55,215 nt of DNA from a virus (Duplodnaviria > Caudoviricetes). The stretch covers positions 1 to 55,215 of IMG/VR virus record IMGVR_UViG_3300020045_003176; one strand, given 5' to 3'. The notes beneath the pieces are model-generated. The model saw nothing but the letters and a program-made list of their open reading frames with translations, made no database searches and was not told the DNA's origin. The translations under genes and the position numbers were made by a program. How positions within the stretch are numbered: position 1 is the stretch's first letter; each line of letters begins with the position of its first letter. Of this stretch, positions 17,865 to 39,271 are shown in pieces.

Positions 17865-18758
17865 TTGGAAACCATCGAGCTACACCCGCTTTGCTCACTT
17901 TTCCCACGGATGCGCGGAGAAGAATACAGCAAGCTCTGCGAAGACATCAAAGCTAACGGGCTTCGCTACCCAATCATCACACACAATGGAATGATCCTAG
18001 ACGGTGGAAACCGGGCTAGAGCGTGCTTCGATCTGGGGATTGAACCGATATACGAAGATTACACCGGAGATAATCTGGTCAGCTTCGTTCTATCAATGAA
18101 TCTGCATCGTCGGCACATGACGGCTGGTCAGCATGCCGCAATCGTCGCCAGTGCGCAGGACTGGTCTGCGGCTCAGAAAGTGGGAAATCCCCAATTCGGT
18201 AATGTTACCGGATTGCAAACCGTGGCAAGCCGATCTGCGGTATCCGGCGCTTCAGACAAGACTCAGCGCAAGGCTGACGCGGTTGCAAAGGCCGATCCAG
18301 AACTAGCTAAAGCCGTTGGGCATGGCGAAGTCAGCTTGGACGAGGCGCATAAACAGGTTAAGCCTGAAGCATCCACGCGCAAGAAGAAATCCATCTTTCA
18401 GAAGATCAAGGATGCGGTGAAGCCGAAACCTGAACCAATCATTGACGAAGAGTGGGTCGAAGATTACGAGAAAGAAGAAGTAAAGCAAGACGAATTGACG
18501 GACTTGCGCAACCAGAATGAGGTATTGCGCATCACTGCCGATGAATTGCTTGCAGAGAATACCGCGATGGGCAAGGTGTTCGATGCTGACGACCGATTAG
18601 CGGCATTGGTAGCGGAAAACAAAATGCTGAAGGCGCAGATCGATATCATGAAAAGCCGAATTGACGGACTCATGGGCGAGAAGAACGAAGCGGTACGACT
18701 AGTAAAGAGTTGGAAGGCTAAAGCCGAGAAGTTGGAGAAGTCAGTCAATGCAGGCTGA
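17865..18758 (+). CDS. ParB-like protein (ParB N-domain, HTH, coiled coil)
   Basis: HPLCSLFP, DIKANGL..PI, ILDGGNR, SMNLHRRH motifs; TTG start. Confidence 0.85.
   Translation: METIELHPLCSLFPRMRGEEYSKLCEDIKANGLRYPIITHNGMILDGGNRARACFDLGIEPIYEDYTGDNLVSFVLSMNLHRRHMTAGQHAAIVASAQDWSAAQKVGNPQFGNVTGLQTVASRSAVSGASDKTQRKADAVAKADPELAKAVGHGEVSLDEAHKQVKPEASTRKKKSIFQKIKDAVKPKPEPIIDEEWVEDYEKEEVKQDELTDLRNQNEVLRITADELLAENTAMGKVFDADDRLAALVAENKMLKAQIDIMKSRIDGLMGEKNEAVRLVKSWKAKAEKLEKSVNAG
18192..18215. promoter_or_regulatory. palindrome copy 1 (core CGGTAA-TG-TTACCG), parS-like/operator
   Basis: CAATTCGGTAATGTTACCGGATTG inside the ParB-like gene. Confidence 0.7.
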
Positions 18759-20277
18759 TCTGATCGAGCGCGAGGCGGCGAATTACGCCTCTTCGACGTT
18801 TCCACCGCCAAGGGATTTCCAGATTATTGCGCATGAAGCGCTAAGGCAAGGTGTTCGTGACAAGCACCGATTGCAAATGGTCTGTGCGCCAACAGGATCA
18901 GGTAAAACGTATCTCGGGATGCGAGTAATTCAAGAGTGCCTGGTGCGCGGAAAATCAGCGATATTTGTTTGTGACCGAACGACACTTATCAATCAGACAT
19001 CGGCTGTCGCTGACTCATATGGTCTGTCTGCGCATGGGATATTGCAGGCAAACAACTGGCGGACAGACCTAGATTCAAAATTTCAGATTGCAAGTTGTCA
19101 GACACTTGCTAGGCGGAATTGGCCTGATGCGGACGTAATCGTAATTGACGAAGCTCATACTCAATATGCAGCATGGGTCGATCATGTGCAAAGCTGTAGG
19201 GCTGTTGTTATTGGCTTGAGCGCCACGCCGTTTAGTGATGGACTCGGCAAGATATTTACCAATCTAGTGAATGCTGCCACGATGAACGATCTTACTGAAT
19301 CGGGCGTATTGGTGCCAATGAAAGTATTTTCGTGCGCGAAGATCGACATGCACGGTGCCGCGACGGCGGGCGGGGAATGGACCGATAAAGCCGCTGAAAC
19401 TCGGGGCATGGCAATCATTGGTGATGTGGTAACTGAGTGGGTAAAGTATGCCAGCACTCGGAAGACTATTGTATTTGGCGCGACGATTGCGCATTGCGAG
19501 GAAATGTGCAAGCAATTTAACGAAGCCGGAATTATGGCGGCAACATTCACATGCGACACCACGTTCGAAGAGAGAGCAATACTTTTAAAAGAGTACCAAA
19601 AGCCTGACAGCGCATTGCGTGTGTTGATATCGGTCGAAGCGCTCGCCAAGGGATTCGATGTCAAAGACGTTGAATGCGTTTGTGATTGTCGGCCCTTACG
19701 AAAATCTCTTTCGACAGCCATTCAGATGTGGGGCAGAGGTCTGCGGTCGTCGCCAGAAACAGGAAAGAAGGATTGCTATCTTTTGGACTTCTCTGGGAAT
19801 ATCGTTCGGTTTGCGGAGGATTACGCGGACATTTTCTACAATGGCCTTGCGGCACTTGATGCAGGTGAAAAGCTCGATAAAGTTATCCGAAAAGACGACG
19901 AGGAAAAGCCCGAAGGTAAAGCGTGCCAGAAATGCGGATACACACCATGCGGCAAGCGCTGTGTAGCGTGCGGATTTGAATTCAAACCCATGAACATGGT
20001 TGAGCATGAAGCCGGTGAAATGTCCGAATTCAAGGTAGGGAAAGCGACGGTAGGTAACAAGCTGGAAGTATGGGAACAATGCTGTACGCTGGTCAGAGGG
20101 CAAGGAAAGCCAGATACAGCAGCCGGGCGAGCGGCGCACCTTTACAAGAGCATTACTGGTTCATTCCCTCGACTCATGCCAGCATTTGAGGCAACGCGGA
20201 ACGTGCCGATCAGTCGTGGTGTTTTGAATAAACAACGAGCAAATTATATTGCCTATCGTGCGAAAGTTGCGGCATGA
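18748..20277 (+). CDS. SF2 DEAH-box helicase with C-terminal zinc finger
   Basis: APTGSGKT, DEAH, SAT, QMWGRGLR, CQKC..CVAC. Confidence 0.92.
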   Translation: MQADLIEREAANYASSTFPPPRDFQIIAHEALRQGVRDKHRLQMVCAPTGSGKTYLGMRVIQECLVRGKSAIFVCDRTTLINQTSAVADSYGLSAHGILQANNWRTDLDSKFQIASCQTLARRNWPDADVIVIDEAHTQYAAWVDHVQSCRAVVIGLSATPFSDGLGKIFTNLVNAATMNDLTESGVLVPMKVFSCAKIDMHGAATAGGEWTDKAAETRGMAIIGDVVTEWVKYASTRKTIVFGATIAHCEEMCKQFNEAGIMAATFTCDTTFEERAILLKEYQKPDSALRVLISVEALAKGFDVKDVECVCDCRPLRKSLSTAIQMWGRGLRSSPETGKKDCYLLDFSGNIVRFAEDYADIFYNGLAALDAGEKLDKVIRKDDEEKPEGKACQKCGYTPCGKRCVACGFEFKPMNMVEHEAGEMSEFKVGKATVGNKLEVWEQCCTLVRGQGKPDTAAGRAAHLYKSITGSFPRLMPAFEATRNVPISRGVLNKQRANYIAYRAKVAA

Positions 20278-21122
20278 CATTTACTGAATTTGCGCGCTGC
20301 CACGGTGTTGAAATTTCCGAACTACGTCAAGGTGACAAGATATACCGTTGCCCAACGACAGCACACCCACGATCTGAAAACGGTGCTTATTGGTTCGATG
20401 GTCGCAAAGGGTGGGCGATGAACTGGGAGACCGGAGAACCGGCCCAGTGGTGGAATGACGAAAACGCTAAACCTTGGACGGATCGAGAAAAGCACGAATG
20501 GGCGCGCAATCGAAAGTTGGCGGAAGCTGCCAAAGGGCAGGCTTACGATGAGGCCATAAAGAGGGCAGCAGTGGCGATAAAAGATGCAAGTAGGGGCACG
20601 CATCAATATCTCATTGAAAAGGGGTTCAAAGACGCGATAGGACTCATCGGATCAGACGGCGAACTGATCATTCCGATGCGCGATTGTCAGAGCGGTCAAT
20701 TACTTGGGTTGCAAACCATTGACCTAATCGACAACGTATGGAAAAAGAAGATGCTTCACGGCATGAGGGCGAAAGGTGCCGTGCTGAGACTCGGACCACC
20801 AAAAGCGGTCGAATCGTGTTTAGTTGAAGGGTACGCCGATGGATTGTCAGTTGATGCTGCCTTGCGTCTTCTTAAGCTAAACGCGGCTGTTGTGATCTGT
20901 TTTTCAGCAGGGAATCTTGTGTATGTGTCGCAACTTGTGACAGGGCGGCGATATATCTACGCGGACAACGACGTATCACGAACCGGGGAAAAGTCGGCAA
21001 TTGCAACCGGCCTACCCTATTGCATGAGTGACACCGTAGGAAATGATCCAAATGACGACCACCAGCAGAAAGGAATAATGGCCGTTGCAAAGAAGATTAT
21101 GGAGGCAAGGAAAAAGACGTAA
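20274..21122 (+). CDS. TOPRIM-domain DNA primase
   Basis: VEGYADG, ADND, D.ND motifs; coupled to the helicase. Confidence 0.88.
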   Translation: MTFTEFARCHGVEISELRQGDKIYRCPTTAHPRSENGAYWFDGRKGWAMNWETGEPAQWWNDENAKPWTDREKHEWARNRKLAEAAKGQAYDEAIKRAAVAIKDASRGTHQYLIEKGFKDAIGLIGSDGELIIPMRDCQSGQLLGLQTIDLIDNVWKKKMLHGMRAKGAVLRLGPPKAVESCLVEGYADGLSVDAALRLLKLNAAVVICFSAGNLVYVSQLVTGRRYIYADNDVSRTGEKSAIATGLPYCMSDTVGNDPNDDHQQKGIMAVAKKIMEARKKT

Positions 21123-21596
21123 AACATAACATTGGTCTATCGGGCTAAGTTGGTGAGCTAAAAGCGGAGTGTCCAGGCTGGAAATGCACGCGAAGAAACA
21201 TGGGTGCGGCATGTAGAACCTGGGTCAGCCAATAACGACGTTCTGGGATGTTGTGGATGTGCGCACAGAAGTTGCAGGCGCAAACTGGCGGTCAATAATA
21301 GGTGCTGTGCCCCCTTGGGTGGGAACGCAAATCCGTTCTTCAATGTGACGGTGTGAAGCGGCAGACGGTCTATTGTCCTCGGGACAGTGCAAGGCGGGCG
21401 TTTGGGTGCGTCCGCAAATCCGAGATTACTGAGTAGCTACGCCCTAGCGAAACGTGCCATGTGGCTCTACAAGTTCGGCTCCGGTCGTCATGTCGATTTC
21501 ATGGAAAGACCCCAACCCGATAATACTAATTGGGAAGGCGGTCTTTTGCCTGTAGATACAGTTCTCACCTGTAGTCATGATGGAGTTTGAGAGTAA
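21123..21596 (+). ncRNA. candidate structured noncoding element (RNA or origin)
   Basis: ~470 nt gap in a densely coding operon, with nested helices. Confidence 0.35.
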
Positions 21597-21785
21597 ATGA
21601 ATATCACTACCGGCCCCTTGGTCGAAGCATACGCCAAGAAGTTCAGCGTACCAGTCAGCGAAGTCCTAGAATGGATAGATGCTTACGTCCATGCGAAAGG
21701 ACTGCCTGACAACATGGAAATAGAACCTACCGAGCGCGAGCGTGCGACGTCGATTCGCGCCTACATGAAAAGGGAAACGGAATGA
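21597..21785 (+). CDS. hypothetical protein
   Basis: GAG-rich SD, ATGA coupling. Confidence 0.55.
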   Translation: MNITTGPLVEAYAKKFSVPVSEVLEWIDAYVHAKGLPDNMEIEPTERERATSIRAYMKRETE

Positions 21786-22003
21786 CCGCAGACGAACTAA
21801 AAGCAGCTAAGGAATACGCCACTGGAGTCCGCGACGGCTTCAAGACTGGAGGCAGAGAAGCCATGTCGGCCATGATCCTTGCCCTGGTAGCAGAGATAGA
21901 GCTTAGGGACCGTCTAGCGGCTGCTGATGCGCTAATTGCCGCAGGAAAGCGCAAGGCTGATTCTGCCGAAGAGTTGAATTTCCTGAAAGGACTGTTTCGG
22001 TGA
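21782..22003 (+). CDS. hypothetical protein
   Basis: ATGA coupling. Confidence 0.55.
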   Translation: MTADELKAAKEYATGVRDGFKTGGREAMSAMILALVAEIELRDRLAAADALIAAGKRKADSAEELNFLKGLFR

Positions 22004-22200
22004 GAACAGCAACGCCCGCATTAATTGAAAATTTACGATTCCTTGCAAGTAATGTTGCTTGGCCCGTAGTTGCACCAAATGCAGACGTGGTGATTGCTGA
22101 GGCAGCAGATAGGCTTGTTGAATTGCAACATCAACTGGATGTAATGAGGCAAGAATGCGAGGACTGGATGACACTATTCAAGCAAGTGAAAGGCGAGTGA
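22000..22200 (+). CDS. hypothetical protein (EAADRL motif)
   Basis: GTGA coupling. Confidence 0.55.
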   Translation: MRTATPALIENLRFLASNVAWPVVAPNADVVIAEAADRLVELQHQLDVMRQECEDWMTLFKQVKGE

Positions 22201-22253
22201 AATATATTTTCTCTGGCGCGTAAAAACTGCTTGTTTATCGGTATAATTTGCGC

Positions 22254-23636
22254 ATGGATAAAACATACGAAGAATTCTTAAACTTCAAGAGTCAGCACAC
22301 AGGTGGCGACGGATTTGCTCCAGTGTTTATGCCTGACTACCTAATTGACTTCCAGGAACATCTAGTCGATTGGTCGGTCAGGAATGGACGGACGGCAATC
22401 TTTGGGGATTGTGGATTAGGAAAAACGCTCCTTGAGTTTGTGTTTGCTGAAAACATCGTCAGGAAAACAAACAAGAATGTACTTCTTGTCACTGTCCTAG
22501 CGGTTGGCGCGCAGATGGTACTTGAGGCAGAAAAGTTCGGGATTGAGGTACATCGGTCGCATGATGGTAGGGTGTATCGAGGCATCACGATTACGAACTA
22601 TGAGCAGTTGCACAAGTTTAATCCGAATGATTTTGTTGCTCTCGTATGCGACGAAAGTTCGATCATCAAAAATTATGCCGGTATGCGCCGTGGTGAGATA
22701 ACGTCATTCATGCGCAAGATGCAATACAGGCTACTTGCGACAGCTACCGCCGCACCGAATGACTACTTGGAACTAGGAACATCCTCCGAGGCGCTAGGGT
22801 ATCTCGGACACATGGACATGCTGGCGCGGTTTTTTAAGAATGATCTGAACAACTCTGCTACGGGCCGGATGCGCGGCGAGGTTATCAAGTGGCGATTCAA
22901 AGGCCATGCCGAGTTACCGTTTTGGAAGTGGGTCTGCTCATGGGCGAGAGCGATCAGGAAGCCATCTGATCTAGGGTTTGATGATACCAAGTTCATCCTT
23001 CCGCCAATGATCGAGCAAGAACATTTAGTGCAAGTGAATTCGTTAGCGGATGGCATGTTGTTTGCGCTGCCTGCGGTTGGACTCAAGGAGCAGCGAGACG
23101 AGAGGAGGAGGTCAATCGTTGAACGATGCGAGAAAGTCGCTTCACTCGTCAATCATACCGGCGAGCAGGCATTGATCTGGTGTCACTTGAATGAGGAAGG
23201 CGACACACTGGAGCGGATGATACCGGATGCTGTTCAAGTGAGTGGATCTGACAGCGACGAGGCAAAGGAAGAGAAACTGCTCGCCTTTGCGAAAGGATCG
23301 GCACGGGTATTGGTCAGTAAGCAAAAGATAGCAGGATTCGGATTGAACTACCAAAATTGCCATCATGTTCTAGCGTTTCCTTCGCACAGTTACGAGCAGT
23401 ATTATCAAGGAATTCGACGTTGCTGGCGGTTTGGCCAAAAGCATCCGGTCAAGGTGGATATCATAACGACTGAAGGGGAGAACGGAGTATTGAAGAATCT
23501 TCAGAGGAAATCAGCGCAGGCCGACAAGATGTTTACCAATCTAGTCGCACAAATGAACGCATCCATGGCAATCGCTAGGCATACTAATTTCAACAAACAA
23601 TTGGAGTCTCCAGCATGGCTGTCTTCGATCAACTGA
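22254..23636 (+). CDS. SNF2-like helicase/ATPase
   Basis: GDCGLGKT, DESS, TATAAPND, QGIRRCWRFGQ. Confidence 0.88.
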   Translation: MDKTYEEFLNFKSQHTGGDGFAPVFMPDYLIDFQEHLVDWSVRNGRTAIFGDCGLGKTLLEFVFAENIVRKTNKNVLLVTVLAVGAQMVLEAEKFGIEVHRSHDGRVYRGITITNYEQLHKFNPNDFVALVCDESSIIKNYAGMRRGEITSFMRKMQYRLLATATAAPNDYLELGTSSEALGYLGHMDMLARFFKNDLNNSATGRMRGEVIKWRFKGHAELPFWKWVCSWARAIRKPSDLGFDDTKFILPPMIEQEHLVQVNSLADGMLFALPAVGLKEQRDERRRSIVERCEKVASLVNHTGEQALIWCHLNEEGDTLERMIPDAVQVSGSDSDEAKEEKLLAFAKGSARVLVSKQKIAGFGLNYQNCHHVLAFPSHSYEQYYQGIRRCWRFGQKHPVKVDIITTEGENGVLKNLQRKSAQADKMFTNLVAQMNASMAIARHTNFNKQLESPAWLSSIN

Positions 23637-24604
23637 TAACCGATAAGTTCGCTTTGTACCACTCAGGGTGCGTCGAGGTCATGCAGGATTTGCCGGAAAA
23701 ATCAATTGCGCTTTCGGTATATTCACCTCCATTTTGTGGCATGTATCAATATTCAAGCCATGAAAGCGACTTATCGAATTGCAAGAGTTACGGTGAGTTC
23801 TTTGATCACTACGCCTTTGTTGTTCATGAGATTGCCAGAGTCACCATGTCAGGCAGAATGACAGCGGTGCATTGCATGGATGTACCAAATAGCAACAGCG
23901 GAACAGACTCCTATCGTGACTTCCCAGGAGACATTATTCGACTTCATGAAAAAGAAGGATTCAAGTATGCGGGCCGGCACATGATATGGAAAGAACCGTT
24001 AGCAGTTCGATTGCGGACCATGCAGAAGAACTTAGCCCATTCATCACTGTGCGCTGACTCGATTGATTGCGGTGTCGCATCAGGGGATTACTTGCTGATC
24101 TTTCGTCGGAATGGGGAAAACAAAATACCTGTCGCGCATCCTGTAGGGATGTTGGAATACGCGGGAGAAAGAAAACCGCCTGCGGATATTCTCCATTATC
24201 GAGGATGGACCGGAAAGCAGACAGAGAATCGGTTCTCTCACTGGATATGGAGGCAGTACGCTGATTGCATGTGGGACGATATCAGAATGAATCGGGTATT
24301 ACCATACAAAGAAGCACGCGGAGCAGACGATGAAAAGCATGTCCATCCGTTGCAGTTGGATGTAATCGACCGGATTGTTGTTCTTCGCACGAATCCTGGT
24401 GAAACGGTTCTGACCCCATTTATGGGGGTTGGATCGGAGGCTTATTCGGCGGTGTCGTTAGGTCGGCGTGCGGTAGGTATCGAGTTGAAAGCGACTTATT
24501 ACCGACAAGCTGTTAAAAATCTGGAACTCGCAGCGGCTGGTGGTAGTCACTTTGCCGATAACCAGGAGTTGAAATTTGATGACGAAAACGGGTTAGCCGC
24601 ATGA
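23615..24604 (+). CDS. DNA amino-methyltransferase (N4C/N6A, beta class)
   Basis: SPPF catalytic motif precedes the PFMGVGS SAM-binding motif. Confidence 0.88.
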   Translation: MAVFDQLITDKFALYHSGCVEVMQDLPEKSIALSVYSPPFCGMYQYSSHESDLSNCKSYGEFFDHYAFVVHEIARVTMSGRMTAVHCMDVPNSNSGTDSYRDFPGDIIRLHEKEGFKYAGRHMIWKEPLAVRLRTMQKNLAHSSLCADSIDCGVASGDYLLIFRRNGENKIPVAHPVGMLEYAGERKPPADILHYRGWTGKQTENRFSHWIWRQYADCMWDDIRMNRVLPYKEARGADDEKHVHPLQLDVIDRIVVLRTNPGETVLTPFMGVGSEAYSAVSLGRRAVGIELKATYYRQAVKNLELAAAGGSHFADNQELKFDDENGLAA

Positions 24605-24789
24605 GAATCACTGAAATAGAATTCATCCGCACCTTCCAATCCATCCATCCGGTATCTGGCCTGGTTGGCGAATGGTACGCGATCCCCGGCGGTGGAGTAG
24701 CGCTGAAAGCAACGCTTGAGAAGTGGGCGCAAGAGAATGTGGTAAGGGCGCGGTTCAGGTCGTGGCGTGATTCGGTGGTGGAGTTATGA
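24601..24789 (+). CDS. hypothetical protein
   Basis: ATGA coupling. Confidence 0.5.
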   Translation: MRITEIEFIRTFQSIHPVSGLVGEWYAIPGGGVALKATLEKWAQENVVRARFRSWRDSVVEL

Positions 24790-24961
24790 CCGTATTAGTT
24801 CTCATCCTTCCCAACAACGAATATCAGCGATGGGAGAATCGCACAATGACGCATCATGTTATCGTCGAGCGAGAGCGGACGAAAGAAGAGATTGAGGAAT
24901 TTCGCGTAAATCCAAAGTCATGGATTAGTGAAGAACCTTGGGACGATGAGCCGGAGTACGC

Positions 24962-25207: not shown

Positions 25208-25392
25208 TTCGTTCTCGTGAAAGGAATAGGAGATGGCCAACAAAGGTAGGTACGCCAGGTAGCCGCTGGCATTGTTGATTTAATGGGAGTTGTGATCGGT
25301 CCTATAAGGGTGTTTCTGATCGCAGCTTTTGATACTCGGTGGCCGTCGATAAAAAAGAAGGCCGAGGAATTAAATAATAGGCTGATTTACTA

Positions 25393-26442: not shown

Positions 26443-27192
26443 ATTATCCATTACCACGGCCTACCGATAACCCCAGGGAAGGCAGCTATGGCGGCAATCA
26501 GCGGTGGTCATCCGTTTATCTCTGTTCGTTACGCAGATCAACTCGGCTTAGCGCTCGAATGTTGCCAAAGTCTAGCGGTGGATAATAGCGCGTTCTCGGC
26601 ATGGAAAGACGGCAATCCGATAACTAATTGGGAATTCTATTACAAGTGGATTGCTGAACTTCACAGATACCCGCAATTTGACTTTGCCGTTATACCGGAT
26701 GTGATAGATGGCAACGAATCTGATAACGATGCATTAGTTGAAGCATGGCCTTGGCAGACCGCAAAGAATAAATGGGTTGGTGCTCCTGTGTGGCATATGC
26801 ATGAAAGCATTGATCGGCTTAAACGATTAGCACACGAATGGCCGCGTATATGCCTTGGCTCCAGTGGGCAATATTCGACTGTAGGTGATTATAGGTGGTG
26901 GAATAGGATGGCCGAAGCGATGAATGCGGTATGCGACAAACTAGGTAATCCAATTGCTAAACTTCATGGCCTGCGCATGCTGAACCCGGATGTGTTTTCT
27001 CGCCTTCCATTCTCCAGCGCGGACAGCACGAATATTGCGCAGAACGTGGGCATTGACTCAGCATGGAGAGGAACCTACACGCCGGCCAGCAAGGAAGTGC
27101 GCGCTCTAGTGATGCGAAATCGAATCGAGTCTATTCAGTCCCCGACATTTTGGGACAAGCAGGCCATCCAAGGAGATCTATTATGCGCGTAA
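26443..27192 (+). CDS. TGT/DpdA-like TIM-barrel transglycosylase (putative); ATT start proposed, first ATG at 26488
   Basis: IHYHG.PITP N-terminus; DNSAFS, PDVI, PVWH, LGSSG, HGLR, SADST echo the TGT-family motif order. Confidence 0.6.
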   Translation: MIHYHGLPITPGKAAMAAISGGHPFISVRYADQLGLALECCQSLAVDNSAFSAWKDGNPITNWEFYYKWIAELHRYPQFDFAVIPDVIDGNESDNDALVEAWPWQTAKNKWVGAPVWHMHESIDRLKRLAHEWPRICLGSSGQYSTVGDYRWWNRMAEAMNAVCDKLGNPIAKLHGLRMLNPDVFSRLPFSSADSTNIAQNVGIDSAWRGTYTPASKEVRALVMRNRIESIQSPTFWDKQAIQGDLLCA

Positions 27193-30071: not shown

Positions 30072-30653
30072 TCATCCCCATTGATCGGCCATTGCGTTTG
30101 CGATTCCTTGATATGTTCTACTCCGGTCTTTCCATCGATCTGGACTGGGAGGTAATTTGTTCTGTCCGCTCTTTGTTTGATTCGCTCGCCGTGTTTTATC
30201 GTTACCTTGTAAGCGATTTGTCTCGGTAAGTAGCGGCAATCGTTTCAGCCATAGACATGTTTTTTTGCTTGCATCTTCGCCGAAATGCCACGGTTGAATG
30301 ATTTGATCCGGTTTTCGTATGCGTGAAGAGATGCAACTAACGGGATTCTCAATGCCAATCTGGTCTATGTCTGAATTCATTAACATCCGAACGAAATCAA
30401 GCGCTAACTCTGTTTTATCTGATCGACCTACAATCCGACCATTCCAATGCAATCCACTGACGGACAGATAGGTACATGGTGGATGCGCTATCATTAAATC
30501 CCAGCGCGTTGCCAACATGTCCCGAATGTCGCCTCGATAATGATTACCTGGTCGCTCAGTTTCAAGCAGATCGCAACTCCATGCATCATGGCCTTTAGCA
30601 GCGAAGGCATCCCGAACGATGCCTGAATACTCGCAAGCAATCAGGACGCGCAT
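30072..30653 (-). CDS. short phage DNA cytosine methyltransferase-like protein
   Basis: VLIACEYSG, AHPPCT, ENP, QPWHFG, K.TCLW, RS.TY.GIA.AMA.QWG. Confidence 0.85.
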   Translation of the reverse strand: MRVLIACEYSGIVRDAFAAKGHDAWSCDLLETERPGNHYRGDIRDMLATRWDLMIAHPPCTYLSVSGLHWNGRIVGRSDKTELALDFVRMLMNSDIDQIGIENPVSCISSRIRKPDQIIQPWHFGEDASKKTCLWLKRLPLLTETNRLQGNDKTRRANQTKSGQNKLPPSPDRWKDRSRTYQGIANAMADQWG

Positions 30654-31482: not shown

Positions 31483-31489
31483 CTGTTTG

Positions 31490-32296: not shown

Positions 32297-32455
32297 GATG
32301 TATCTCCTTGATTAAAAACAGCTTGGCAAAATTGCCGGTTAGAACAAACTAATTTCGATTAACGAGTGGAAACAAGCATTTGCAGAGATCATGCCTGACT
32401 GATAAGCCGCTCGGATAAGCCGGCTCAGTTCGGTGCGTCGGTCAAGGCTCATGAT

Positions 32456-32632
32456 TTACTCAACAACCCAGAACGTCGGGCCACTGACGGCGATTGATGA
32501 GCCATCGGAGAATGTGTATGTAGTCGTCTCAGTCGCCCAGTCGTTATCTACTTCGGCCTCTTTTGAATGAGCCAGCGTATCAAGCGCTACCGCATCATTG
32601 GCTGAGTTATAAACTTGTTCTGCTGTTGTCAT
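32456..32632 (-). CDS. hypothetical protein (start MTTAEQ)
   Basis: AAGGAG SD; YTFSDGS motif. Confidence 0.6.
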   Translation of the reverse strand: MTTAEQVYNSANDAVALDTLAHSKEAEVDNDWATETTTYTFSDGSSIAVSGPTFWVVE

Positions 32633-32672
32633 TTTGATTCTCCTTGTCTGTGTTTCGTTATCCAATGATTAG

Positions 32673-32700
32673 AGTATATACGTTAAATAGAGTAATGCAA
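32673..32700 (-). promoter_or_regulatory. leftward early promoter
   Basis: Minus strand TTGCAT-N16-TATACT. Confidence 0.55.
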
Positions 32701-32899
32701 TAGATCAGAGTAAATAAATCAATCCAGCCGACGAACGGTAGGTAGTAACTTATAAACTACTGAATTGATTGAACTAAATATAAGGAAAACGAAAAGCCAT
32801 TTGTTGCATCGCACAATGAACGAATAGCACACAGCAAAGAATTTATCCTGTAGAATCAACACATAAACTGCCAAACAGGCGGTATCGTGAATAGATCAG

Positions 32900-33373
32900 A
32901 TGAGAGCGCAAGCCATAGAATCTCTCAAGGACATAGATAGCTCGCTGATGGAGCTACAGATTGCCTCCCCACAAAGAGGGTCAATCGTCCTATCTAACGC
33001 CGAAAACATCATCCGCCAAGTCGCTGACGGCCTAATGCTCAAAGACATAGGCGCTCAGTACGGCATTAAACCCGCAACTATCTCAGATCAACTCAGCAAA
33101 TACCCCGTCTATCAAAGAGCCAGAATGATTGGCGCTGAAATGAGACTAGAGAAGAACTACGGGGAAATAGAGAGCGCAGAAGATGCTTTAGACGTAACTC
33201 GCGCACGCGAATCCTTTCGAGCTGCATCCTGGCTTGCTGAACGGGAATTCCCTGAGCGCTGGGGTAACAAAGCATCGCAAACTGTTGTTAATGTTCAACA
33301 AAACAACGTCCAAGTAGCTCCAGATGACCGTGATGCTCGCATAGCTGAGCTACTAGCGCGAGCCGGTAAGTAG
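32900..33373 (+). CDS. terS: terminase small subunit
   Basis: N-terminal HTH, Y.RAR, W.AER..P.RWG motif; upstream of TerL. Confidence 0.75.
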   Translation: MRAQAIESLKDIDSSLMELQIASPQRGSIVLSNAENIIRQVADGLMLKDIGAQYGIKPATISDQLSKYPVYQRARMIGAEMRLEKNYGEIESAEDALDVTRARESFRAASWLAEREFPERWGNKASQTVVNVQQNNVQVAPDDRDARIAELLARAGK

Positions 33374-33374
33374 C

Positions 33375-33398
33375 CTATCCGGTAACATTACCGAATAG
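33375..33398. promoter_or_regulatory. palindrome copy 2 (core CGGTAA-CA-TTACCG)
   Basis: CTATCCGGTAACATTACCGAATAG directly after the terS stop. Confidence 0.7.
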
Positions 33399-33425
33399 CG
33401 GAATGGTCAATTAGATCAATCATTT

Positions 33426-33956
33426 ATGGCAAATCCACCAGTCTGCAAAATATGCAAGACGGCTCATTGGTCCGGTCAGGGTCATTCGTGCGACGATAAA
33501 CCGAAGAAATCCGTTGATAAACAAGAGGATAGGGATAAGGCAGCGATCATAGACGACCTGCGCGTGAAGACGGCTGCGATCACTGGCAAAGCCGCTCCAT
33601 TGGTCACGCACTGCGTCAATTGTGCGACCAAAGACGGTGAGATTAAGCGCCAGACTGCTGATTTACTGGCCGCTAGTGCGCTCATTATCGAGCTGAGAGC
33701 GGAGATTGACGAGCTAACACGTGCTAACACTCTGCTAACAACTGCTAACACTCTGCTAACAGGGCGTGCTAACAACCTGCTAACAGCTAACACGCCTGCT
33801 AACACAATCAATCCTGTTAGCACTCAGCCTGCTAACACAACTGCTAACGTGCTAACAGATGCTAACAGCGCTGCTAACAAGCTAACAGACCGTAAAGAGT
33901 ACATGCGCGAGCTAATGAGGGCCAAGCGAGCGGCAAAGAAGGCGAGCAATGGATAG
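33426..33956 (+). CDS. Zn-finger/coiled-coil protein with basic C-terminal helix, containing a DNA repeat array
   Basis: CKIC..HW...H.C, CVNC, coiled coil, RKEYMRELMRAKR. Confidence 0.65.
   Translation: MANPPVCKICKTAHWSGQGHSCDDKPKKSVDKQEDRDKAAIIDDLRVKTAAITGKAAPLVTHCVNCATKDGEIKRQTADLLAASALIIELRAEIDELTRANTLLTTANTLLTGRANNLLTANTPANTINPVSTQPANTTANVLTDANSAANKLTDRKEYMRELMRAKRAAKKASNG
33713..33887. repeat. array of 16 GCTAAC motifs (15 direct, 1 inverted)
   Basis: Starts at 33713, 723, 734, 744, 755, 768, 779, 786, 798, 816 (inverted), 831, 843, 851, 861, 873, 881. Confidence 0.95.
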
Positions 33957-34203
33957 TTGGGATACGCTGATCGAGGCGTTCGAGGCAATCCCCCGAGTCG
34001 GCAAAGCGCCGCGCACAGGGAATCACGCCGACTATCTCAAGTGGCAATCTGAGTGTGACCGGCGAGATGTAATGATGCAAGATTGGATAGCTAGAGTGGA
34101 TGCGCTCCAGTCCGCTCAATCACATGGTGAGTATCAGACTCGGCAAGCCAAGCATTCATTTCTGGCCGACTCATCTCCACCGAACGGCTCAGAATTCAAC
34201 TGA
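33949..34203 (+). CDS. hypothetical protein
   Basis: Overlaps the upstream stop. Confidence 0.45.
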   Translation: MDSWDTLIEAFEAIPRVGKAPRTGNHADYLKWQSECDRRDVMMQDWIARVDALQSAQSHGEYQTRQAKHSFLADSSPPNGSEFN

Positions 34204-34243
34204 GCGTGCAACTGAGTTGCATTTAGGATGCTGATCCTGACAA

Positions 34244-35821
34244 ATGCTAACTGACGCTGAGATACTAGAGCTAGAGTCGCTGCTAGACCTACGCGACAAG
34301 GATCGGGCGGAACAGAGCCTATACGCATTCGCGCAACAAGCATGGCCGATCATTGAGCCGGGTACGGAGTTCGTACCTGGATGGCACCTGGAGCAGATCT
34401 GTCTGCACTTGGAAGCTGTATCTAATGGTGAGATTCGCAATCTCCTAATCAATATCCCGCCACGGCATTGCAAGAGCCTACTGGTATCAGTCCTATGGGT
34501 AGCATGGACCTGGATCAAACATCCATCACATCGATGGCTCTGCGCCTCCTACGCTGGCAGTCTGTCAGTCCGTGACTCTATTAAGTGTCGGCGACTGATA
34601 CAAAGCGACTGGTATCAAAAGCGCTGGCCGCTCGTCCTGACCGGCGACCAGAACGCCAAGACGTTTTTCGAGAGTGAGAAGGCCGGATACAGGATGGCAA
34701 CATCGGTAGGTGCTTCGACTACTGGTCATGGTGGCGACACAATCCTGATTGACGATCCAATTAACGCCCTGGACGCCTCATCCGATGCGGTCCTAGACTC
34801 AACCCTGGAGTGGTACGATCAAGCCATGAGCACGCGGCTCAATAATCCGCAGTCCGGCTCACGAGTCATCATCATGCAACGGCTCCATGAGCGTGATCTA
34901 TCTGGACACGTGCTGAAGCAAGGCGGATGGGAGCATCTTTGTCTGCCTGCCGAGTACGATGGTATCAAGCGTAAGACGGTCCTCGGACATTACGATCAGC
35001 GTAAGAAGGTAGGCGAGCTGCTCTGGCCTGGTCAGTACGGACGCGAGGAAATCGAGGATTTGAAGGTACGGCTAGGCCAGTACGGAACAGCCGGGCAGCT
35101 TCAGCAGATGCCTTCCCCTGCAGGTGGTGGAATCATCGATACGACCAAGTTCAAGCTATGGCCGAATGACCGCACCCTACCGCCGATGCTGTTTATCGTA
35201 CAGTCGATGGACACGGCTTTCACGGAAAAGACGGAAGGCGATCCGACTGGATGCTTGGTCCTTGGCATCTTTGAGTGGCAGAAGAAGCGCCGATGTATCT
35301 TATTGGATGCCTGGACCGAGCATCTAACGTACCCAAAGCTCCGGCAAAGGGTGATAGACGACTGGCACGCAAGATACAATTCAGACGCAACCTATGGCAA
35401 GGCAGGCAAGGCGGACATTTGCCTGATCGAGAACAAGGGGTCAGGCATGGCCCTGGTAAATGATCTTGGCTCAACTGGAGTCAGGGTAGCGAGCTACGAT
35501 CTACCAAGGGGTCAGAGGTCCGAACTGTCCAAGGTGGCCCGGGTGCATATCGTCACACCAATAATTGATGCTGGCCTATTCTACGTGCTGGAGTCGAAGG
35601 CTAGACCTGGACAGCCTGTCACATGGGCAGATGGGTTTATCAATCAGTGTAAGTCATTCCCTAAGGCAGAGCACGACGAATACCCCGATTGCCTCAGCAT
35701 GGGTCTGTATTACTTGGATGGATCAGGATGGTTTGACCTTCCAGTAGCCAGGGAGGATGACCTACCGGAACTAGACTATGATCGGGCTAGGAAGATGGCG
35801 GAGAATCCTTATGCGAGCTAA
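34244..35821 (+). CDS. terL: terminase large subunit
   Basis: IPPRHCKS Walker A, LIDDP Walker B, MQRLH, C-terminal DTAF...HDE.PD nuclease motifs. Confidence 0.95.
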   Translation: MLTDAEILELESLLDLRDKDRAEQSLYAFAQQAWPIIEPGTEFVPGWHLEQICLHLEAVSNGEIRNLLINIPPRHCKSLLVSVLWVAWTWIKHPSHRWLCASYAGSLSVRDSIKCRRLIQSDWYQKRWPLVLTGDQNAKTFFESEKAGYRMATSVGASTTGHGGDTILIDDPINALDASSDAVLDSTLEWYDQAMSTRLNNPQSGSRVIIMQRLHERDLSGHVLKQGGWEHLCLPAEYDGIKRKTVLGHYDQRKKVGELLWPGQYGREEIEDLKVRLGQYGTAGQLQQMPSPAGGGIIDTTKFKLWPNDRTLPPMLFIVQSMDTAFTEKTEGDPTGCLVLGIFEWQKKRRCILLDAWTEHLTYPKLRQRVIDDWHARYNSDATYGKAGKADICLIENKGSGMALVNDLGSTGVRVASYDLPRGQRSELSKVARVHIVTPIIDAGLFYVLESKARPGQPVTWADGFINQCKSFPKAEHDEYPDCLSMGLYYLDGSGWFDLPVAREDDLPELDYDRARKMAENPYAS

Positions 35822-36123
35822 CCCCACTGATCGGCCATCGATTGGGCAATGCCTTGGTAGGTTCGGCTCCTGTCTTTCCATCGTGTAGGACTAGGCGTTA
35901 ATTTGTTCTGTCCGCTGTTGCACTGATTCCCCCACCGTTCCCGTGCAACTCTCGCGCCGTTGCAGTTCGGGCAACCATACTTAATCACTACTCGCACATC
36001 GCCCTGATAGTGTTGTCCTGGTAAGTCGCTTTTCAATATGTCGCAACTCCATGCGTCATGCCCTTTCGCGGCAGAGGCATCCCGTACTCTTCCACTGTAT
36101 TCGCAGGCAACAAGCACCCTCAT
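35818..36123 (-). pseudogene. internally deleted paralog of the cytosine MTase-like gene
   Basis: N- and C-termini match 30072-30653; HPPC and ENP core missing. Confidence 0.75.
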
Positions 36124-36338
36124 GACCAATTAATCCTAACCCGCACCGCATCAGGCGTGAATACCTCGCTACCACGGATAATGGTTGGCCTCGCCTTCTG
36201 GTCACAATTACAAAATGAGGGGTTCCCGAAGTATGAATTAGCTGGACAGTCTCCCCAATGGGTATTGCCTGGAGCTAGGCCAAGGATAGTCCGCATTCGG
36301 GTATTGAGTCTTTCGGCGATGGTGTCTTCGTCGATCAT
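36120..36338 (-). CDS. hypothetical protein
   Basis: ATGA coupling. Confidence 0.45.
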   Translation of the reverse strand: MIDEDTIAERLNTRMRTILGLAPGNTHWGDCPANSYFGNPSFCNCDQKARPTIIRGSEVFTPDAVRVRINWS

Positions 36339-36580
36339 ATAGGCAGTCTCCCAGTATTAAGCCAATGTTCCATGCTCATGATGAGGCCTTGCACCTGTTC
36401 TCGGTCCAGGTGATGATCCTGTCCGACCCATAGATAACTGCTTCCCGGCTTATCCATTGAATCTTCGTAGTCACCAATGGCCGATGATTCCTGAATCAAT
36501 CGAGTGAATTCGCCTGGTTCATTTTGATACTTCTCTTCTTCTATTACGATGAATCCACGGTCAGTCTTTATGGCGCGCAT
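36335..36580 (-). CDS. conserved phage protein (T.RGF...QESS....WVG...HL.REQV..L)
   Basis: Recognisable motif. Confidence 0.65.
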   Translation of the reverse strand: MRAIKTDRGFIVIEEEKYQNEPGEFTRLIQESSAIGDYEDSMDKPGSSYLWVGQDHHLDREQVQGLIMSMEHWLNTGRLPI

Positions 36581-36583
36581 GAT

Positions 36584-36793
36584 TCACCCCTCTGAAAATA
36601 GCAGTGTCAGACTGCATATGGTCAATGGGTCACTCGGAAGCATTCCTAAATTCGTATCGTTGAGGATGAATTTCTTCAACTCTAGGTAATCCTCCATCGA
36701 CAGGATTGGATTCTTTAGTGTGGCGATACCGTCGAGATTGGCGACTTCTCCGATTCTCCTTTGTTGTATGGCGTGGTAGTGGTAGATGTACAT
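36584..36793 (-). CDS. hypothetical protein
   Basis: TAATG coupling. Confidence 0.55.
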   Translation of the reverse strand: MYIYHYHAIQQRRIGEVANLDGIATLKNPILSMEDYLELKKFILNDTNLGMLPSDPLTICSLTLLFSEG

Positions 36794-37011
36794 TATCCAT
36801 TCATCGCCTTAAACTGTTTCAGTGAAATAGGAATAGCGAACAGTAGAGCGTACTCTGATTGCTCGTCTAGTAATTGATTACAAGCGAGTGACTCGGCAGG
36901 ATGTTTGTCAGTGGCATAGCTATAGACAGTCTCGACGATGTATCCGCCAGACGCTACTCGCTCTTTCCTGATAGTGACTAGCCAGTATTGTTTAGCAGAC
37001 ATATCATCCAA
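36793..37011 (-). CDS. hypothetical protein
   Basis: Operon packing. Confidence 0.5.
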   Translation of the reverse strand: MDDMSAKQYWLVTIRKERVASGGYIVETVYSYATDKHPAESLACNQLLDEQSEYALLFAIPISLKQFKAMNG

Positions 37012-37225
37012 TCGCCATCATCATTGGGCCATCGTAGTTGTCAGTCACCAAGAATGTATGATGGCCTTCGCACGGAATGATCGGCACGCCGCACAGGACA
37101 TTGCCTGATCCCCTACGATACTCTGGGAACGCGTCAACCATATCTTGGTAGCACATGAATACCGCTAATGGTCTTGGTGACATCTGCCTCGTTATAGCGC
37201 CAACTAGCTTACCTTCAGTCATCAT
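37004..37225 (-). CDS. hypothetical protein
   Basis: ATGA coupling. Confidence 0.5.
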   Translation of the reverse strand: MMTEGKLVGAITRQMSPRPLAVFMCYQDMVDAFPEYRRGSGNVLCGVPIIPCEGHHTFLVTDNYDGPMMMAIG

Positions 37226-37446
37226 CTTTGGTCTCCTTCAACGCTAACAATTTTACCGCGCTCTTTCCGTATTGTTTGCGACCATGAACATGATGCGCAC
37301 GACCGAGTTATTGACTCCATTGCTGGTCCGTTATACCAAGTACCATCGGTGTCTTTCCATGCTCGATAGGCGTCGGCAGTGACCATTGAGCTGCCGGTCC
37401 AGTGAGGGCAATCGCAGACGGGGCAACGAGAGTAAATCTCCATCAT
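37222..37446 (-). CDS. zinc-ribbon hypothetical protein
   Basis: CPVC...CASC. Confidence 0.5.
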   Translation of the reverse strand: MMEIYSRCPVCDCPHWTGSSMVTADAYRAWKDTDGTWYNGPAMESITRSCASCSWSQTIRKERGKIVSVEGDQR

Positions 37447-37613
37447 TTCCCATTCAACATCTTAAACAACTTCATTGCCCCTGGTGGCGGGGTCTGTTTG
37501 CCTTCCTCCCATCGTGACCATGTCCTATGGCTAACCTCGACCTGTTTAGCGGCTTTGGCAATGGTTAGGCCGAGACTGTTTCTCAACAATTTCAGTTCGA
37601 TGCCGGTCATCAT
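37443..37613 (-). CDS. XRE/Cro-type HTH regulator (56 aa, not in ORF track)
   Basis: MMTGIELKLLRNSLGLTIAKAAKQVEVSHRTWSRWEEGKQTPP... Confidence 0.8.
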   Translation of the reverse strand: MMTGIELKLLRNSLGLTIAKAAKQVEVSHRTWSRWEEGKQTPPPGAMKLFKMLNGK

Positions 37614-37933
37614 GCGTACCACTTCTTGATCTTGTGATATTCCGCAACAACATCCCAGTATCCGAGCGATTCGAGTAGCGCAACTAGAACATCGTCTGCT
37701 CCGGTGTGTGCATATTCGTGGTCGTTATCATGCTGCAATACTATCAGTCTAGCCAGTGCTTCTTCTCTGGTCATGTTCATTCTTTCTTTGGTAATTTCCG
37801 TCGCAAACTCGGCAAGCATGTTGCGCATTGTGTCATTGATGAAGTCCCATCGTCCATCGCCTTTGTACTGTGCGAACCCGGCTTTAGCAGCGGCTTCTAG
37901 CCAGTGTTTAGGCCAACAGTGAATGATGGTCAT
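37610..37933 (-). CDS. hypothetical protein (C-terminal D.E.AH..AD.VL...WYA domain)
   Basis: Possibly a fusion of two small phage ORFs. Confidence 0.55.
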   Translation of the reverse strand: MTIIHCWPKHWLEAAAKAGFAQYKGDGRWDFINDTMRNMLAEFATEITKERMNMTREEALARLIVLQHDNDHEYAHTGADDVLVALLESLGYWDVVAEYHKIKKWYA

Positions 37934-38394
37934 ACATTTGTCTCCATGTTTTGCCGGACATCTTCCCCGCCCATCTTATTCATTCTGTCGTACAGCACTA
38001 CATTTGCCGTGGCCGCAAGATTCATACAACCATGAGTAGGAACATACACTACGTCACGGCACCAAGACAGCACACGCTCGCCTAACGTAGCGTCTTCAGC
38101 GCCGAAAATGTAAAACGCTCTCACTGGATGCACGTAACTCACCAAACTACGGGCACCAGACACCAAATCAATTGCCACTGGGACACAATCATACGGAATA
38201 ACTAGCCGTAAATCCTCAGTTTCAATCACTGGAGTCATCCGCCATTGCTTCTTTACATCGGTCGGCACTTTCCTCATCCTATGCCCAGACATGGCGACCA
38301 TTGCGGCACCGTAGCATCCAGCAGCGCGCATGACGCCGCCTACATTTGCAGAGCATTTGGGGTTATCTAGCCCGATTGCAGCAAACCCCCGCAT
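37930..38394 (-). CDS. SpoU/TrmH-family (SPOUT) RNA methyltransferase
   Basis: NPK..NVG.VMRAA (motif 1), YIFGAED (motif 2), VP..CMNLAATANVVLYD (motif 3). Confidence 0.9.
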   Translation of the reverse strand: MRGFAAIGLDNPKCSANVGGVMRAAGCYGAAMVAMSGHRMRKVPTDVKKQWRMTPVIETEDLRLVIPYDCVPVAIDLVSGARSLVSYVHPVRAFYIFGAEDATLGERVLSWCRDVVYVPTHGCMNLAATANVVLYDRMNKMGGEDVRQNMETNV

Positions 38395-38396
38395 GA

Positions 38397-38759
38397 TTAT
38401 CGCATCACCCTATACCCACGCCCTGCCATACAGTTCTTGACGACACTCCGCTGACCGTTATCGCCTTCCATTCCACCACCTAGCGCACCTGTTACTAGTC
38501 CTACTCTAGCGGTAGCGCCCTGATCGTAGCCTTTCCCTGCGGCTGCGGCAAGGATGGCACCGAACAATGCGCCAGCGATGGCACCTGCTGCGGCACTGCT
38601 ACCCGCTCCAGCGACTTGACTGGCGTATTGCTGGCATTCCCCTAGATCGGATTCCAGTCGGTTCAAATCCACTCCCTTGGTATCTACCAGAGGGCGATAG
38701 TTAGCTCCGGCGCATCCTGTGAGTGTCAGGACGATCATACATTTTGCTAGTGTTTTCAT
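38397..38759 (-). CDS. glycine-zipper lipoprotein
   Basis: Lipobox LTGC16, GAIAGALFGA zipper, C-terminal CMAGRGY. Confidence 0.8.
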   Translation of the reverse strand: MKTLAKCMIVLTLTGCAGANYRPLVDTKGVDLNRLESDLGECQQYASQVAGAGSSAAAGAIAGALFGAILAAAAGKGYDQGATARVGLVTGALGGGMEGDNGQRSVVKNCMAGRGYRVMR

Positions 38760-38777
38760 GATTATCTCCGGTGATTA

Positions 38778-39164
38778 TTAACTGAACTCCAGTGATTCGC
38801 CAGCTTTTGCGGCTTTTCGGCATCCTTTAATCCATTTGCGTGCTGTTGCTCCTATTCCTCCGTTGCGCTCAAGATGTCCGCCACCACCGCCCATATCATC
38901 AAGTTTTGGCAACAGCAACTCCATCTCATCGGCACATTTCGCAGCAAGGTATGGTGTAATTTCTCCCTCACAATCTCCGTGCGCTAGGAATTCAAACAGG
39001 CCAGGATGTGTTTCCTTGGAATAACCTTCTCCAAAGTGCCAGAACTCACGCCCGCTTACCGCGTCGCACCAATGGCCTTCGGTAGCCTTGCAAACCGACT
39101 CTCTGAACCTGTTGAATGCAGAATACGCGCCATCGAATGCGCCGTGTGAAACATCTAGTCCCAT
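38778..39164 (-). CDS. conserved phage protein (MGLD...Y..F..FR...H.DCEG)
   Basis: GAGGGG SD; recognisable motif. Confidence 0.7.
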   Translation of the reverse strand: MGLDVSHGAFDGAYSAFNRFRESVCKATEGHWCDAVSGREFWHFGEGYSKETHPGLFEFLAHGDCEGEITPYLAAKCADEMELLLPKLDDMGGGGGHLERNGGIGATARKWIKGCRKAAKAGESLEFS

Positions 39165-39211
39165 ATTATTCCCCCTCAAATCGTCACGGCGAATGCCACG
39201 ACCCAATACGA

Positions 39212-39240
39212 ACTATACGCCAATTTGGCATAGATAACAA
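39212..39240 (-). promoter_or_regulatory. leftward promoter of the accessory island
   Basis: Minus strand TTGTTA-N17-TATAGT. Confidence 0.55.
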
Positions 39241-39251
39241 GATGAATTGCA

Positions 39252-39271
39252 ATCCGGTAACATTACCGGAT
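39252..39271. promoter_or_regulatory. palindrome copy 3
   Basis: ATCCGGTAA-CA-TTACCGGAT between divergent promoters. Confidence 0.75.

Follow-up and report, generated by a model that had tools for sequence, protein, structure and literature searches.

One of the parS sites of Bacillus subtilis lies inside spo0J, and N15, a linear plasmid-prophage, carries SopA (a ParA) together with dispersed centromere sites for SopB. In phage lambda, as the available part of one study describes, ori-lambda is embedded within gene O (PMC8508860). Noc (PMC12704722) and KorB (PMC11790492) are, according to the available parts of these sources, ParB-fold proteins that act without ParA. Here we analyze a palindrome that lies inside a ParB-like gene of a virus of the class Caudoviricetes (IMG/VR record IMGVR_UViG_3300020045_003176) and recurs at two further points of the same record. 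The record is linear, comprises 55,215 bp and is estimated to be ~71% complete; we refer to this whole stretch as the window. An earlier, sequence-only reading had pointed out the palindrome and proposed a sliding-clamp regulator or genome organizer that links replication to packaging and late transcription. The reading which we favor, and to which we assign a probability of about one half, is that the palindrome is the cognate site of the protein encoded by the gene that carries it and also an origin-type or loading site of a replication module.

The locus resembles Spo0J-parS in the fold of the ParB N-domain and helix-turn-helix (HTH), in having a palindromic site of 16-26 bp which can be located in the gene of its own binder and, as we infer here, in dimeric binding. 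It differs in that there is no ParA in the window, and in that the protein is not matched by PF02195, has replacements in its nucleotide boxes and ends in a coiled coil; further, its site has a fixed position in an inserted linker, is normally the sole copy and has helicase and primase genes as neighbors. With lambda O, the locus shares a cis site midway in the gene of the binder, in an interdomain linker (the available part of PMC8508860), as well as the position of that gene between the immunity switch and the Nin region, followed by genes that bring in the helicase. The two folds are unrelated, however, and there is one palindrome here in contrast to four iterons and an AT-rich region in lambda, and the phage's own superfamily 2 (SF2) helicase and primase in place of P and the host DnaB.

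Similar to KorB-OB of plasmid RK2 and Noc-NBS, the protein has no cognate ParA operon and its sites are palindromes that can lie in or near promoters, as does the third site of the window. Yet, in the available parts of the sources on KorB and Noc, these proteins have many dispersed sites per replicon, whereas here there is normally one intragenic site, with three only in the window, and no KorA-like partner is seen. Many promoter operators across the replicon, as is typical of KorB, were not found, the window having one promoter-proximal copy (site 3). N15 is comparable in that a ParB-type palindromic site is scattered into other functional regions of a phage genome, but there is no ParA in the window, and the dispersal is peculiar to one phage.

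The palindrome in the window

The window contains three exact copies of CGGTAAYRTTACCG (18197-18210, 33380-33393 and 39255-39268), where none would be expected; 100 dinucleotide-preserving shuffles of the window did not yield a single match, and searching the window with up to two mismatches revealed no copy beyond the three. The 9-bp half-site ATYCGGTAA occurs six times, compared to 0.61 expected occurrences, and all six lie within the three sites. All three sites extend to 24-bp near-palindromes in which the arms differ at one position and the central TG/CA is asymmetric; their consensus is C[A/T]AT[C/T]CGGTAA-(TG/CA)-TTACCG[G/A]AT[A/T]G. Site 1 shares 20 identical bp with site 2 and, as an alignment confirmed, the 22 identical bp with site 3 that the sequence-only reading had reported, both in opposite orientation. 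The positions which that reading gave for the three copies are exact, and so is its description of where they lie.

The codons of site 1 specify residues 110-117 of the ParB-like protein (QFGNVTGL), which belong to a linker of low model confidence directly before the HTH, whose helices begin at residue 120. In site 2, the CGGTAAYRTTACCG core begins 7 bp past the stop codon of a probable small terminase gene (terS), which was recognized by a match to Sf6_terminase (E = 4.3e-5, below Pfam's cut-off) and to the PHROG terS family (1.8e-6). Site 3 lies before the portal gene (phrog_1216, 5.9e-14), between two divergent promoters and 16 bp and 9 bp upstream of their −35 boxes. The leftward promoter, predicted by a promoter scan, leads into small genes; the putative rightward one, read by eye, leads into a 71-aa open reading frame (ORF) and the portal gene.

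The palindrome in homologous genes

We collected the DNA of homologous genes from 56 IMG/VR loci and from 79 loci in bacterial genomes. Of these 135 loci and the window, 135 sequences had a tblastn match (L138 had none) and 126 could be anchored for parsing of the linker, defined as the segment that follows the conserved ...IVASAQDW helix and ends at the HTH; the nine homologous sequences left out were truncated or degenerate. In a first set of 57 linkers, which included the window, 51 contained a palindrome with a score of at least 8, compared to 25 of 1140 windows of 105 nt placed at random in these loci. Among the 126 parsed loci, 92 linkers precede an HTH of the usual type, and 75 of these reached a score of at least 8 and 82 a score of at least 7. 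They contain 52 distinct palindromes with lengths of 14-32 bp. The arms vary by lineage, both arms changing together (AATCCGGTAACGTTACCGGATT, ATCAAAGTGCAACGTTGCACTTTGAT, TCAAGCGGCAACGTTGCCGCTTGA, CCAATTACGCAACGTTGCGCAATTGG, TCAAGTGCTCCCGGGAGCACTTGA), and the base-specific core of the palindrome (AACGTT) is conserved beyond mere pairing. Acidovorax phage AP1, a cultured phage with 32% identity in the protein and the only isolate we found with the trio of ParB-like, helicase and primase genes, has a 25-bp palindrome at the equivalent position of the linker.

In some loci, the segment coding for the site is tandemly duplicated within the gene (L019-L024, L027, L035; L034 and L131). The duplications take two forms, one with identical palindromes 39 bp apart and a duplication of the peptide GNPQFGKITGLQT, the other with different palindromes 30 bp apart. 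The remaining 34 parsed homologues form a Methylobacter-type clade from Methylobacter and Methylococcaceae genomes (within L080-L126), in which the HTH reads SGVG[HQ]RTQQ and no helicase follows downstream. Their palindromes are eroded, with only one of the 34 scoring at least 8, and the outer CAATT...AATTA is often kept.

Co-variation of the palindrome with the recognition helix

The recognition helix opens with S-G-A-S-x1-x2-T-Q-x3, and we compared the residues x1, x2 and x3 with positions 4-7 of the half-site in 118 loci. Each of the four main half-site classes goes with residues of its own: GTGC with [V/I/L] R..K (26/26 loci), CGGT, which is the class of the window, with [D/E] K..R (19/19), CGGC with [E/D] R..R (12/12) and ACGC with H R..Q (3/3). 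No HTH class serves two half-sites in the 60 loci of these classes, and the 17 further half-site classes, with one or two loci each, mostly have their own residue combinations. Two-fold symmetry is retained in every class. For phylogenetically independent pairs, drawn from a FastTree tree of the proteins in which the linker and the HTH were masked, changes were concordant in 6 of 6 pairs (p = 0.031), in about 9 of 10 (none opposite, one unchanged; p = 0.004) and in 7 of 7 (p = 0.016). The sequence-only reading had named co-variation of the intragenic palindrome with the HTH residues of homologues as a check on its proposal, and the outcome, positive in 60/60 loci of the main classes, points to the ParB-like protein, rather than to another HTH protein, as the likely binder. 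Judging from these sequence comparisons, it is very probable that the ParB-like protein binds the palindrome in its own gene.

The constraint on the palindrome acts on DNA. One and the same 14-mer, GTGCAACGTTGCAC, occupies codon phase 1 in 16 loci, giving ..SATLH.., and in phase 2 in 10 loci, giving ..CNVAP..; for CGGCAACGTTGCCG, the phases split into 7 loci with ..ATLP.. and 3 with ..GNVAG... For both sequences the HTH class is the same in the two phases, indicating selection on the DNA and not on the peptide. Nor is there a signature of an mRNA hairpin, given that mismatches between the arms have no G-U bias: the 12-bp arms of 49 distinct palindromes comprise 529 Watson-Crick pairs and, read on the sense strand, 9 G-U, 14 A-C and 36 transversion-type mismatches. 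Site 3, being located upstream of both predicted promoters, is probably not transcribed.

As the only other HTH gene near the ParB-like locus (Table 1), we considered the upstream LuxR/GerE-type gene as the source of a binder. It is present in none of the 135 homologous loci, cannot therefore explain the conserved site, and was ruled out. This gene sits just past a divergent promoter pair at ~16.87-16.95 kb and is probably part of the phage's switch.

Fold and family of the ParB-like protein

The AlphaFold (AF2) model of the ParB-like protein has a mean predicted local distance difference test (pLDDT) score of 76.9. It comprises a confident N-domain (residues ~1-82, pLDDT 79-94), a low-confidence stretch (83-118), the HTH (~120-165), which is preceded by a conserved helix and then the variable linker, and a C-terminus modeled as one long helix or coiled coil (195-296). 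The helices of the HTH span residues 120-127, 131-143 (the recognition helix), 145-152 and 158-165. A dimer formed through the predicted coiled coil would fit a two-fold symmetric site of 20-26 bp.

In Foldseek searches against PDB, all ten matches at E ≤ 0.001 were to the ParB family, namely to ParB, Spo0J or Noc (best E 9e-5, probability 1.0); these ten, among them pNOB8 ParB-N, Myxococcus ParB with CDP, Spo0J and Noc, were aligned over 179-192 columns. Below them followed KorB (E = 0.02-0.03, again with probability 1.0) and PadC (E = 0.04), with the first match outside the ParB family at E = 0.2. The alignments to ParB, Spo0J, Noc and KorB extend over ~160-190 columns and thus cover the N-domain and the HTH domain together. 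In sequence searches, PF02195 (ParB_N) did not match the protein even at E ≤ 10, nor did any NCBIfam model at E ≤ 0.01. A profile built from 25 homologues gave weak matches to Spo0J (1vz0, E = 0.016) and to Myxococcus ParB; in the alignment to 1vz0, DGGNRYRAC is placed over AGERRYRAA and ANLHRRH over ENLQRED. The nucleotide boxes I-III accordingly read FPR for QPR, GGNRxRA for GERRxRA and ANLHRR for ENLQRE, and are invariant or nearly so in the 25 sequences: the arginines and the Asn are kept, while Glu and Gln are replaced. Canonical ParB uses the acidic and Gln residues of these boxes for CTP hydrolysis.

The ESM Atlas cluster of the protein has 1016 members, of which 74% are viral, and carries the automatic name ParB/RepB/Spo0J; at E ≤ 0.001 we found 1363 homologues. 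The designation as ParB-like, which originates from the sequence-only reading, is therefore right at the level of modeled fold and architecture, with the protein standing outside the curated family. The same reading had seen no ParA, and models of ParA-type ATPases (PF13614, PF01656) indeed had no match in six frames of the ~71% complete window, with positive controls in 14 of 14 genomes. The Atlas record of the protein begins at residue 16 (ATG at 17910). A start at this ATG would cut off box I, and homologues show little or no variation in residues 4-15 (ELHPLCSLFPR); the real start is therefore the TTG at 17865 or one near it.

The helicase and primase genes

The ParB-like gene is followed by genes for an SF2 helicase and a Toprim-type primase (Table 1), which accompany it in 71 and 67 of the 135 loci, respectively; of the 22 window genes tested (15.3-28.1 kb), all others are found in at most 12. 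The helicase family has four invariant C-terminal cysteines (C393, C396, C405, C408) that form a zinc ribbon, and the closest resemblance among NCBIfam models is to the RadD repair helicase. In AP1, an Xre-type repressor and divergent small genes precede the ParB-like, helicase and primase genes, and in the window NinG lies downstream of the ParB-like gene. Together, these arrangements place the ParB-like gene where lambdoid phages keep O and P.

Among the loci with at least 2 kb of downstream sequence, 56 have the helicase and the palindrome, 12 the helicase and a weaker palindrome, 13 the palindrome only and 27 neither. The Methylobacter-type clade, with its eroded palindromes and no helicase, fits a site that is linked to replication. 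The cumulative GC skew of the window has its minimum near 16-17 kb; as the skew tracks gene orientation, it is not informative on an origin.

An inverted repeat (17771-17805) with 17-bp arms, a 1-nt spacer and 82% complementarity lies in the 330-bp gap before the ParB-like gene and is preceded by a terminator-like hairpin (17611-17628). The repeat may be an operator of the replication operon. Further downstream, the window has genes for an N6/N4 DNA methyltransferase (23615-24604), a second methyltransferase (30072-30653) and a DpdA-like transglycosylase (26488-27192; PHROG 'queuine tRNA-ribosyltransferase', 6.6e-65), from which it appears that the phage probably modifies its DNA. A link of these modification genes to the ParB-like gene was rejected, as they occur in only 2-3 of the 135 homologous loci. 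The ParB partners of phage T-dioxygenases are a different case as well, being without a DNA-binding domain according to the available part of the source (PMC13229309).

Table 1. Positions of the palindromic sites, genes and promoters in the 55,215-bp window.
Feature	Position	Strand	Description
LuxR/GerE-type HTH gene	16849-17196		115 aa; only other HTH gene near the ParB-like locus
ParB-fold protein gene	17865..18758	+	297 aa; ORF and translation, model, Foldseek
Site 1	18192..18215		CAATTCGGTAATGTTACCGGATTG; inside the ParB-like gene 17865-18758
HTH coding region, residues 120-143	18222..18293	+	Co-varying residues D131, K132, R135
SF2 helicase gene	18748..20277	+	ResIII and Helicase_C, C-terminal 4-Cys ribbon; start overlaps the ParB-like stop
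Toprim-type primase gene	20274..21122	+	Toprim_3 E = 1.5e-5 (below cut-off); PHROG DNA primase 9e-23
Site 2	33375..33398		CTATCCGGTAACATTACCGAATAG; follows the stop of the probable terS (33373) and precedes the ORF at 33426
Divergent promoter region	39212..39316	minus and plus	Promoters of both strands flanking site 3
Predicted promoter TTGTTA-17-TATAGT	39240-39212	−	Promoter scan
Site 3	39250..39273		CAATCCGGTAACATTACCGGATAG; precedes the −35 box of either divergent promoter
Putative promoter TTGACG-17-TATACA	39288-39316	+	Identified by eye, absent from the promoter scan

Copies of the site in other genomes

The sequence-only reading had expected copies near terS and portal in homologous phages as well. 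In the 56 IMG/VR loci with flanks of 10 kb on either side, the 14-mer of each locus (at most one mismatch) recurs solely in tandem duplicates or, in L017, ~560 bp upstream, and the site never adjoins terminase genes. We further scanned 26 other records or genomes over their whole length, four of which are complete or nearly so (AP1, complete; G011 and G024, 100%; G028, 94%). Five virus records have only the intragenic copy, apart from one (G001) that also has an upstream copy. Among five bacterial genomes of 5.7-11.4 Mb, four have a single copy and one (G006) has three, two of them 574 bp apart and the third on another contig. Four virus records, including one 100% complete provirus, and one 4.4-Mb genome have a single copy or a tandem pair 39 bp apart, and the complete genome of AP1 has a single copy even when 3 mismatches in 19 are allowed. 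Ten more virus records, two of them at least 94% complete, have a single 10-bp core except for a tandem pair and one 10-mer at a distance of 2.6 kb from the gene, which did not match the 14-mer of its locus. In two relatives, a second copy is found about 570 bp 5' of the intragenic one, in the region before the gene.

Thus, none of the 26 other records and genomes has dispersed copies in its phage or prophage region, the sole exception to the general pattern being the G006 copy on another contig, and none has matched copies near terS or portal. This comparison was made in records that bear a homologue and not in close kin of the phage, of which none were found: megablast of the 17-40 kb part of the window against 50,697 phage records had no match, and IMG/VR scans for close relatives of single proteins yielded none for the ParB-like protein, one for portal and only matches of ≤42% identity for terL. 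In the one portal relative (74% identity), the 15.4-kb locus lacks palindromes with a score of at least 9, also in the region upstream of portal. As a general mechanism, the proposed link of replication to packaging and late transcription therefore fails, because the homologues are without distal copies; for this phage alone it is a possibility. The three-copy layout is peculiar to one phage.

The left half of site 3 with 3 flanking bases is identical to the right half of site 1 (ttgCAATCCGGTAA), and its right half with 4 flanking bases to the left half of site 2 (tagcCTATCCGGTAA). Site 3 is thus a chimera of halves of the two other sites, which suggests that the copies arose by recombination at the palindrome. 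It also forms the right boundary of a block of ~11 small minus-strand genes (35818-39206) inserted between terL and portal, which is an unusual interruption of the packaging and head module.

Scanning metagenomes for the 20-mer gave nine matches, none of them in a ParB-like gene and none window-like beyond the site, a number that by rough estimate is around chance level. One metagenome contig (L199, 1,089 bp) has 25 nt in common with site 3. In IMG/VR, TCCGGTAANNTTACCGGA was found in 35 contigs with one site each; nine of these sites are inside ParB-like genes, and most of the remaining matches look like chance. Two related IMG/VR contigs, 45-55% complete and with no ParB-like gene in the parts examined, contain the perfect 22-bp palindrome of the CGGTAA class, AATCCGGTAACGTTACCGGATT, in an ORF of >2,600 aa (L170:829-846, L177:6878-6895). 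This may be a distal copy in another phage.

A proposed replication-linked site and its alternatives

We propose that the ParB-like protein recognizes, as its cognate DNA site, the palindrome carried by its gene. The site heads a conserved operon of ParB-like, SF2 helicase and Toprim primase genes and is in single copy in nearly all relatives. By analogy to lambda O and ori-lambda, a single cis site in the gene of its binder, atop a helicase-primase operon, favors an origin-type or loading site, at which the ParB-fold protein would nucleate, possibly in a manner gated by nucleoside triphosphates (NTP). A replication role of the protein and its site seems to us close to an even bet, though slightly on the lower side. 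In the phage studied here, where the site has been copied twice, the additional copies would also recruit the protein to the terS 3' end and the divergent promoters before portal, where it could modulate transcription or organize DNA, an effect that we infer. A fuller version of this proposal, in which the protein is a ParB-fold origin-recognition or loading factor of an SF2-helicase/Toprim-primase replicon, with a single palindromic origin in the linker of its own gene and a three-residue code that has diversified into at least a dozen orthogonal pairs, is rather unlikely to hold in all its parts.

Several observations weigh against this proposal. The site and the HTH are less than 100 bp apart, so that part of their co-variation is linkage within a cassette and does not necessarily represent separate mutational events. 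Good palindromes are kept in 13 of the 40 helicase-less loci with enough flanking sequence, and some helicase-less loci carry a DUF1376 (YdaU-like) replication protein, Rha or a PAPS-reductase-like protein; the protein may therefore be an accessory to replication modules, and not an initiator. The joint loss of palindrome and helicase comes essentially from one clade and amounts to essentially one evolutionary event. There is no iteron family and no AT-rich unwinding element around site 1, unlike in origins of the lambda type, and the helicase, as an SF2 protein similar to RadD, is not a classical replicative hexamer. Finally, the positions of sites 2 and 3 fit a transcriptional or organizing role better than they fit extra origins.

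Such a role is at the center of an alternative in which the protein is an NTP-gated sliding clamp or regulator akin to KorB and Noc, which would load at the palindrome, close upon nucleotide binding, slide, and repress or organize neighboring DNA. The intragenic site would let it control the early operon to which it belongs, and sites 2 and 3 would extend this control, in this phage, to the operons for packaging and late functions. The presence of Noc and KorB among the Foldseek matches, the nearly invariant GxxRxRA and NLxRR motifs, the short distances of site 3 from two −35 boxes, the second copy ~570 bp upstream in two relatives, in the region before the gene, and the lack of a ParA in the window all agree with this explanation, as does the long-range silencing by KorB that is documented in the available part of PMC11790492. 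The 26 other records, however, show no operator network but only the intragenic copy; in addition, the acidic and Gln residues of boxes I-III are replaced (FPR, GGNR, ANLHRR), PF02195 has no match, the C-terminus is modeled as a coiled coil and not as the dimerization domain of ParB or KorB, and no KorA-like partner was identified. We consider this explanation unlikely, if still worth serious attention.

Much less probable is a parS-like centromere for plasmid-like maintenance, which would segregate or position the phage DNA with a ParA from the host or from the unrecorded part of the genome, or with the host SMC. A unique palindrome per genome, beside the gene of its ParB, is the usual layout of such systems, the source databases name relatives 'ParB/RepB/Spo0J' or 'plasmid replication/partition related protein', and the window is only ~71% complete; but it contains no ParA, several relatives are integrated proviruses or reside in bacterial chromosomes, where partition is not needed, and the conserved partnership is with a helicase and a primase, not with a ParA-type ATPase. 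We give still slightly less credence to the idea that the palindrome serves another role altogether, be it as an mRNA hairpin, as the site of another factor or as a recombination or packaging signal, and that its correlation with the HTH reflects nothing but cassette linkage. The short distance between site and HTH does entail co-inheritance, site 2 abuts terS, and the chimeric nature of site 3, including its flanks, hints at recombination at the sites. Against this stand the unbiased arm mismatches, the probable location of site 3 outside any transcript, the conservation of AACGTT cores beyond pairing, the finding that each HTH class goes with a single half-site class in the 60/60 loci of the four main groups, the absence of the only other nearby HTH gene from all 135 loci, and the site of the relatives, which is never beside terminase genes within the 10-kb flanks.

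Novelty and significance

A literature search of partial coverage found no description of an intragenic palindrome in phage ParB-like genes; the supplementary trees of PMC12704722 may include the family. What seems to be new is a large family of viral proteins, not covered by PF02195, whose genes contain the site at a fixed position and normally in one copy, as well as the reading of this site in two frames, the three-residue recognition pattern and the conserved partnership with a helicase and a primase. Being invisible to PF02195, the family was probably missed by the fold survey based on that model, as far as the available part of PMC12704722 allows us to judge.

If our reading holds, a large, mostly viral family of ParB-like proteins gains a defined DNA target and a testable role. 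It would also offer a set of naturally occurring HTH variants, each with its matching palindrome, in which specificity can be read from three residues, useful for studying how ParB specificity switches and as a source of compact orthogonal ParB/parS pairs for DNA labeling. Because the site lies in a sequence-tolerant linker just 5' of the HTH codons, the binding module and its target would move as one cassette between mosaic phages; this would be a second case, unrelated to lambda O, of a design in which a site within the gene of its binder keeps cis and trans elements together in mosaic genomes. Should the fuller proposal be true, the ParB switch would underlie a novel class of replication initiators in phages, and sites 2 and 3 of the window would serve as secondary loading points, coupling replication to packaging and the late genes.

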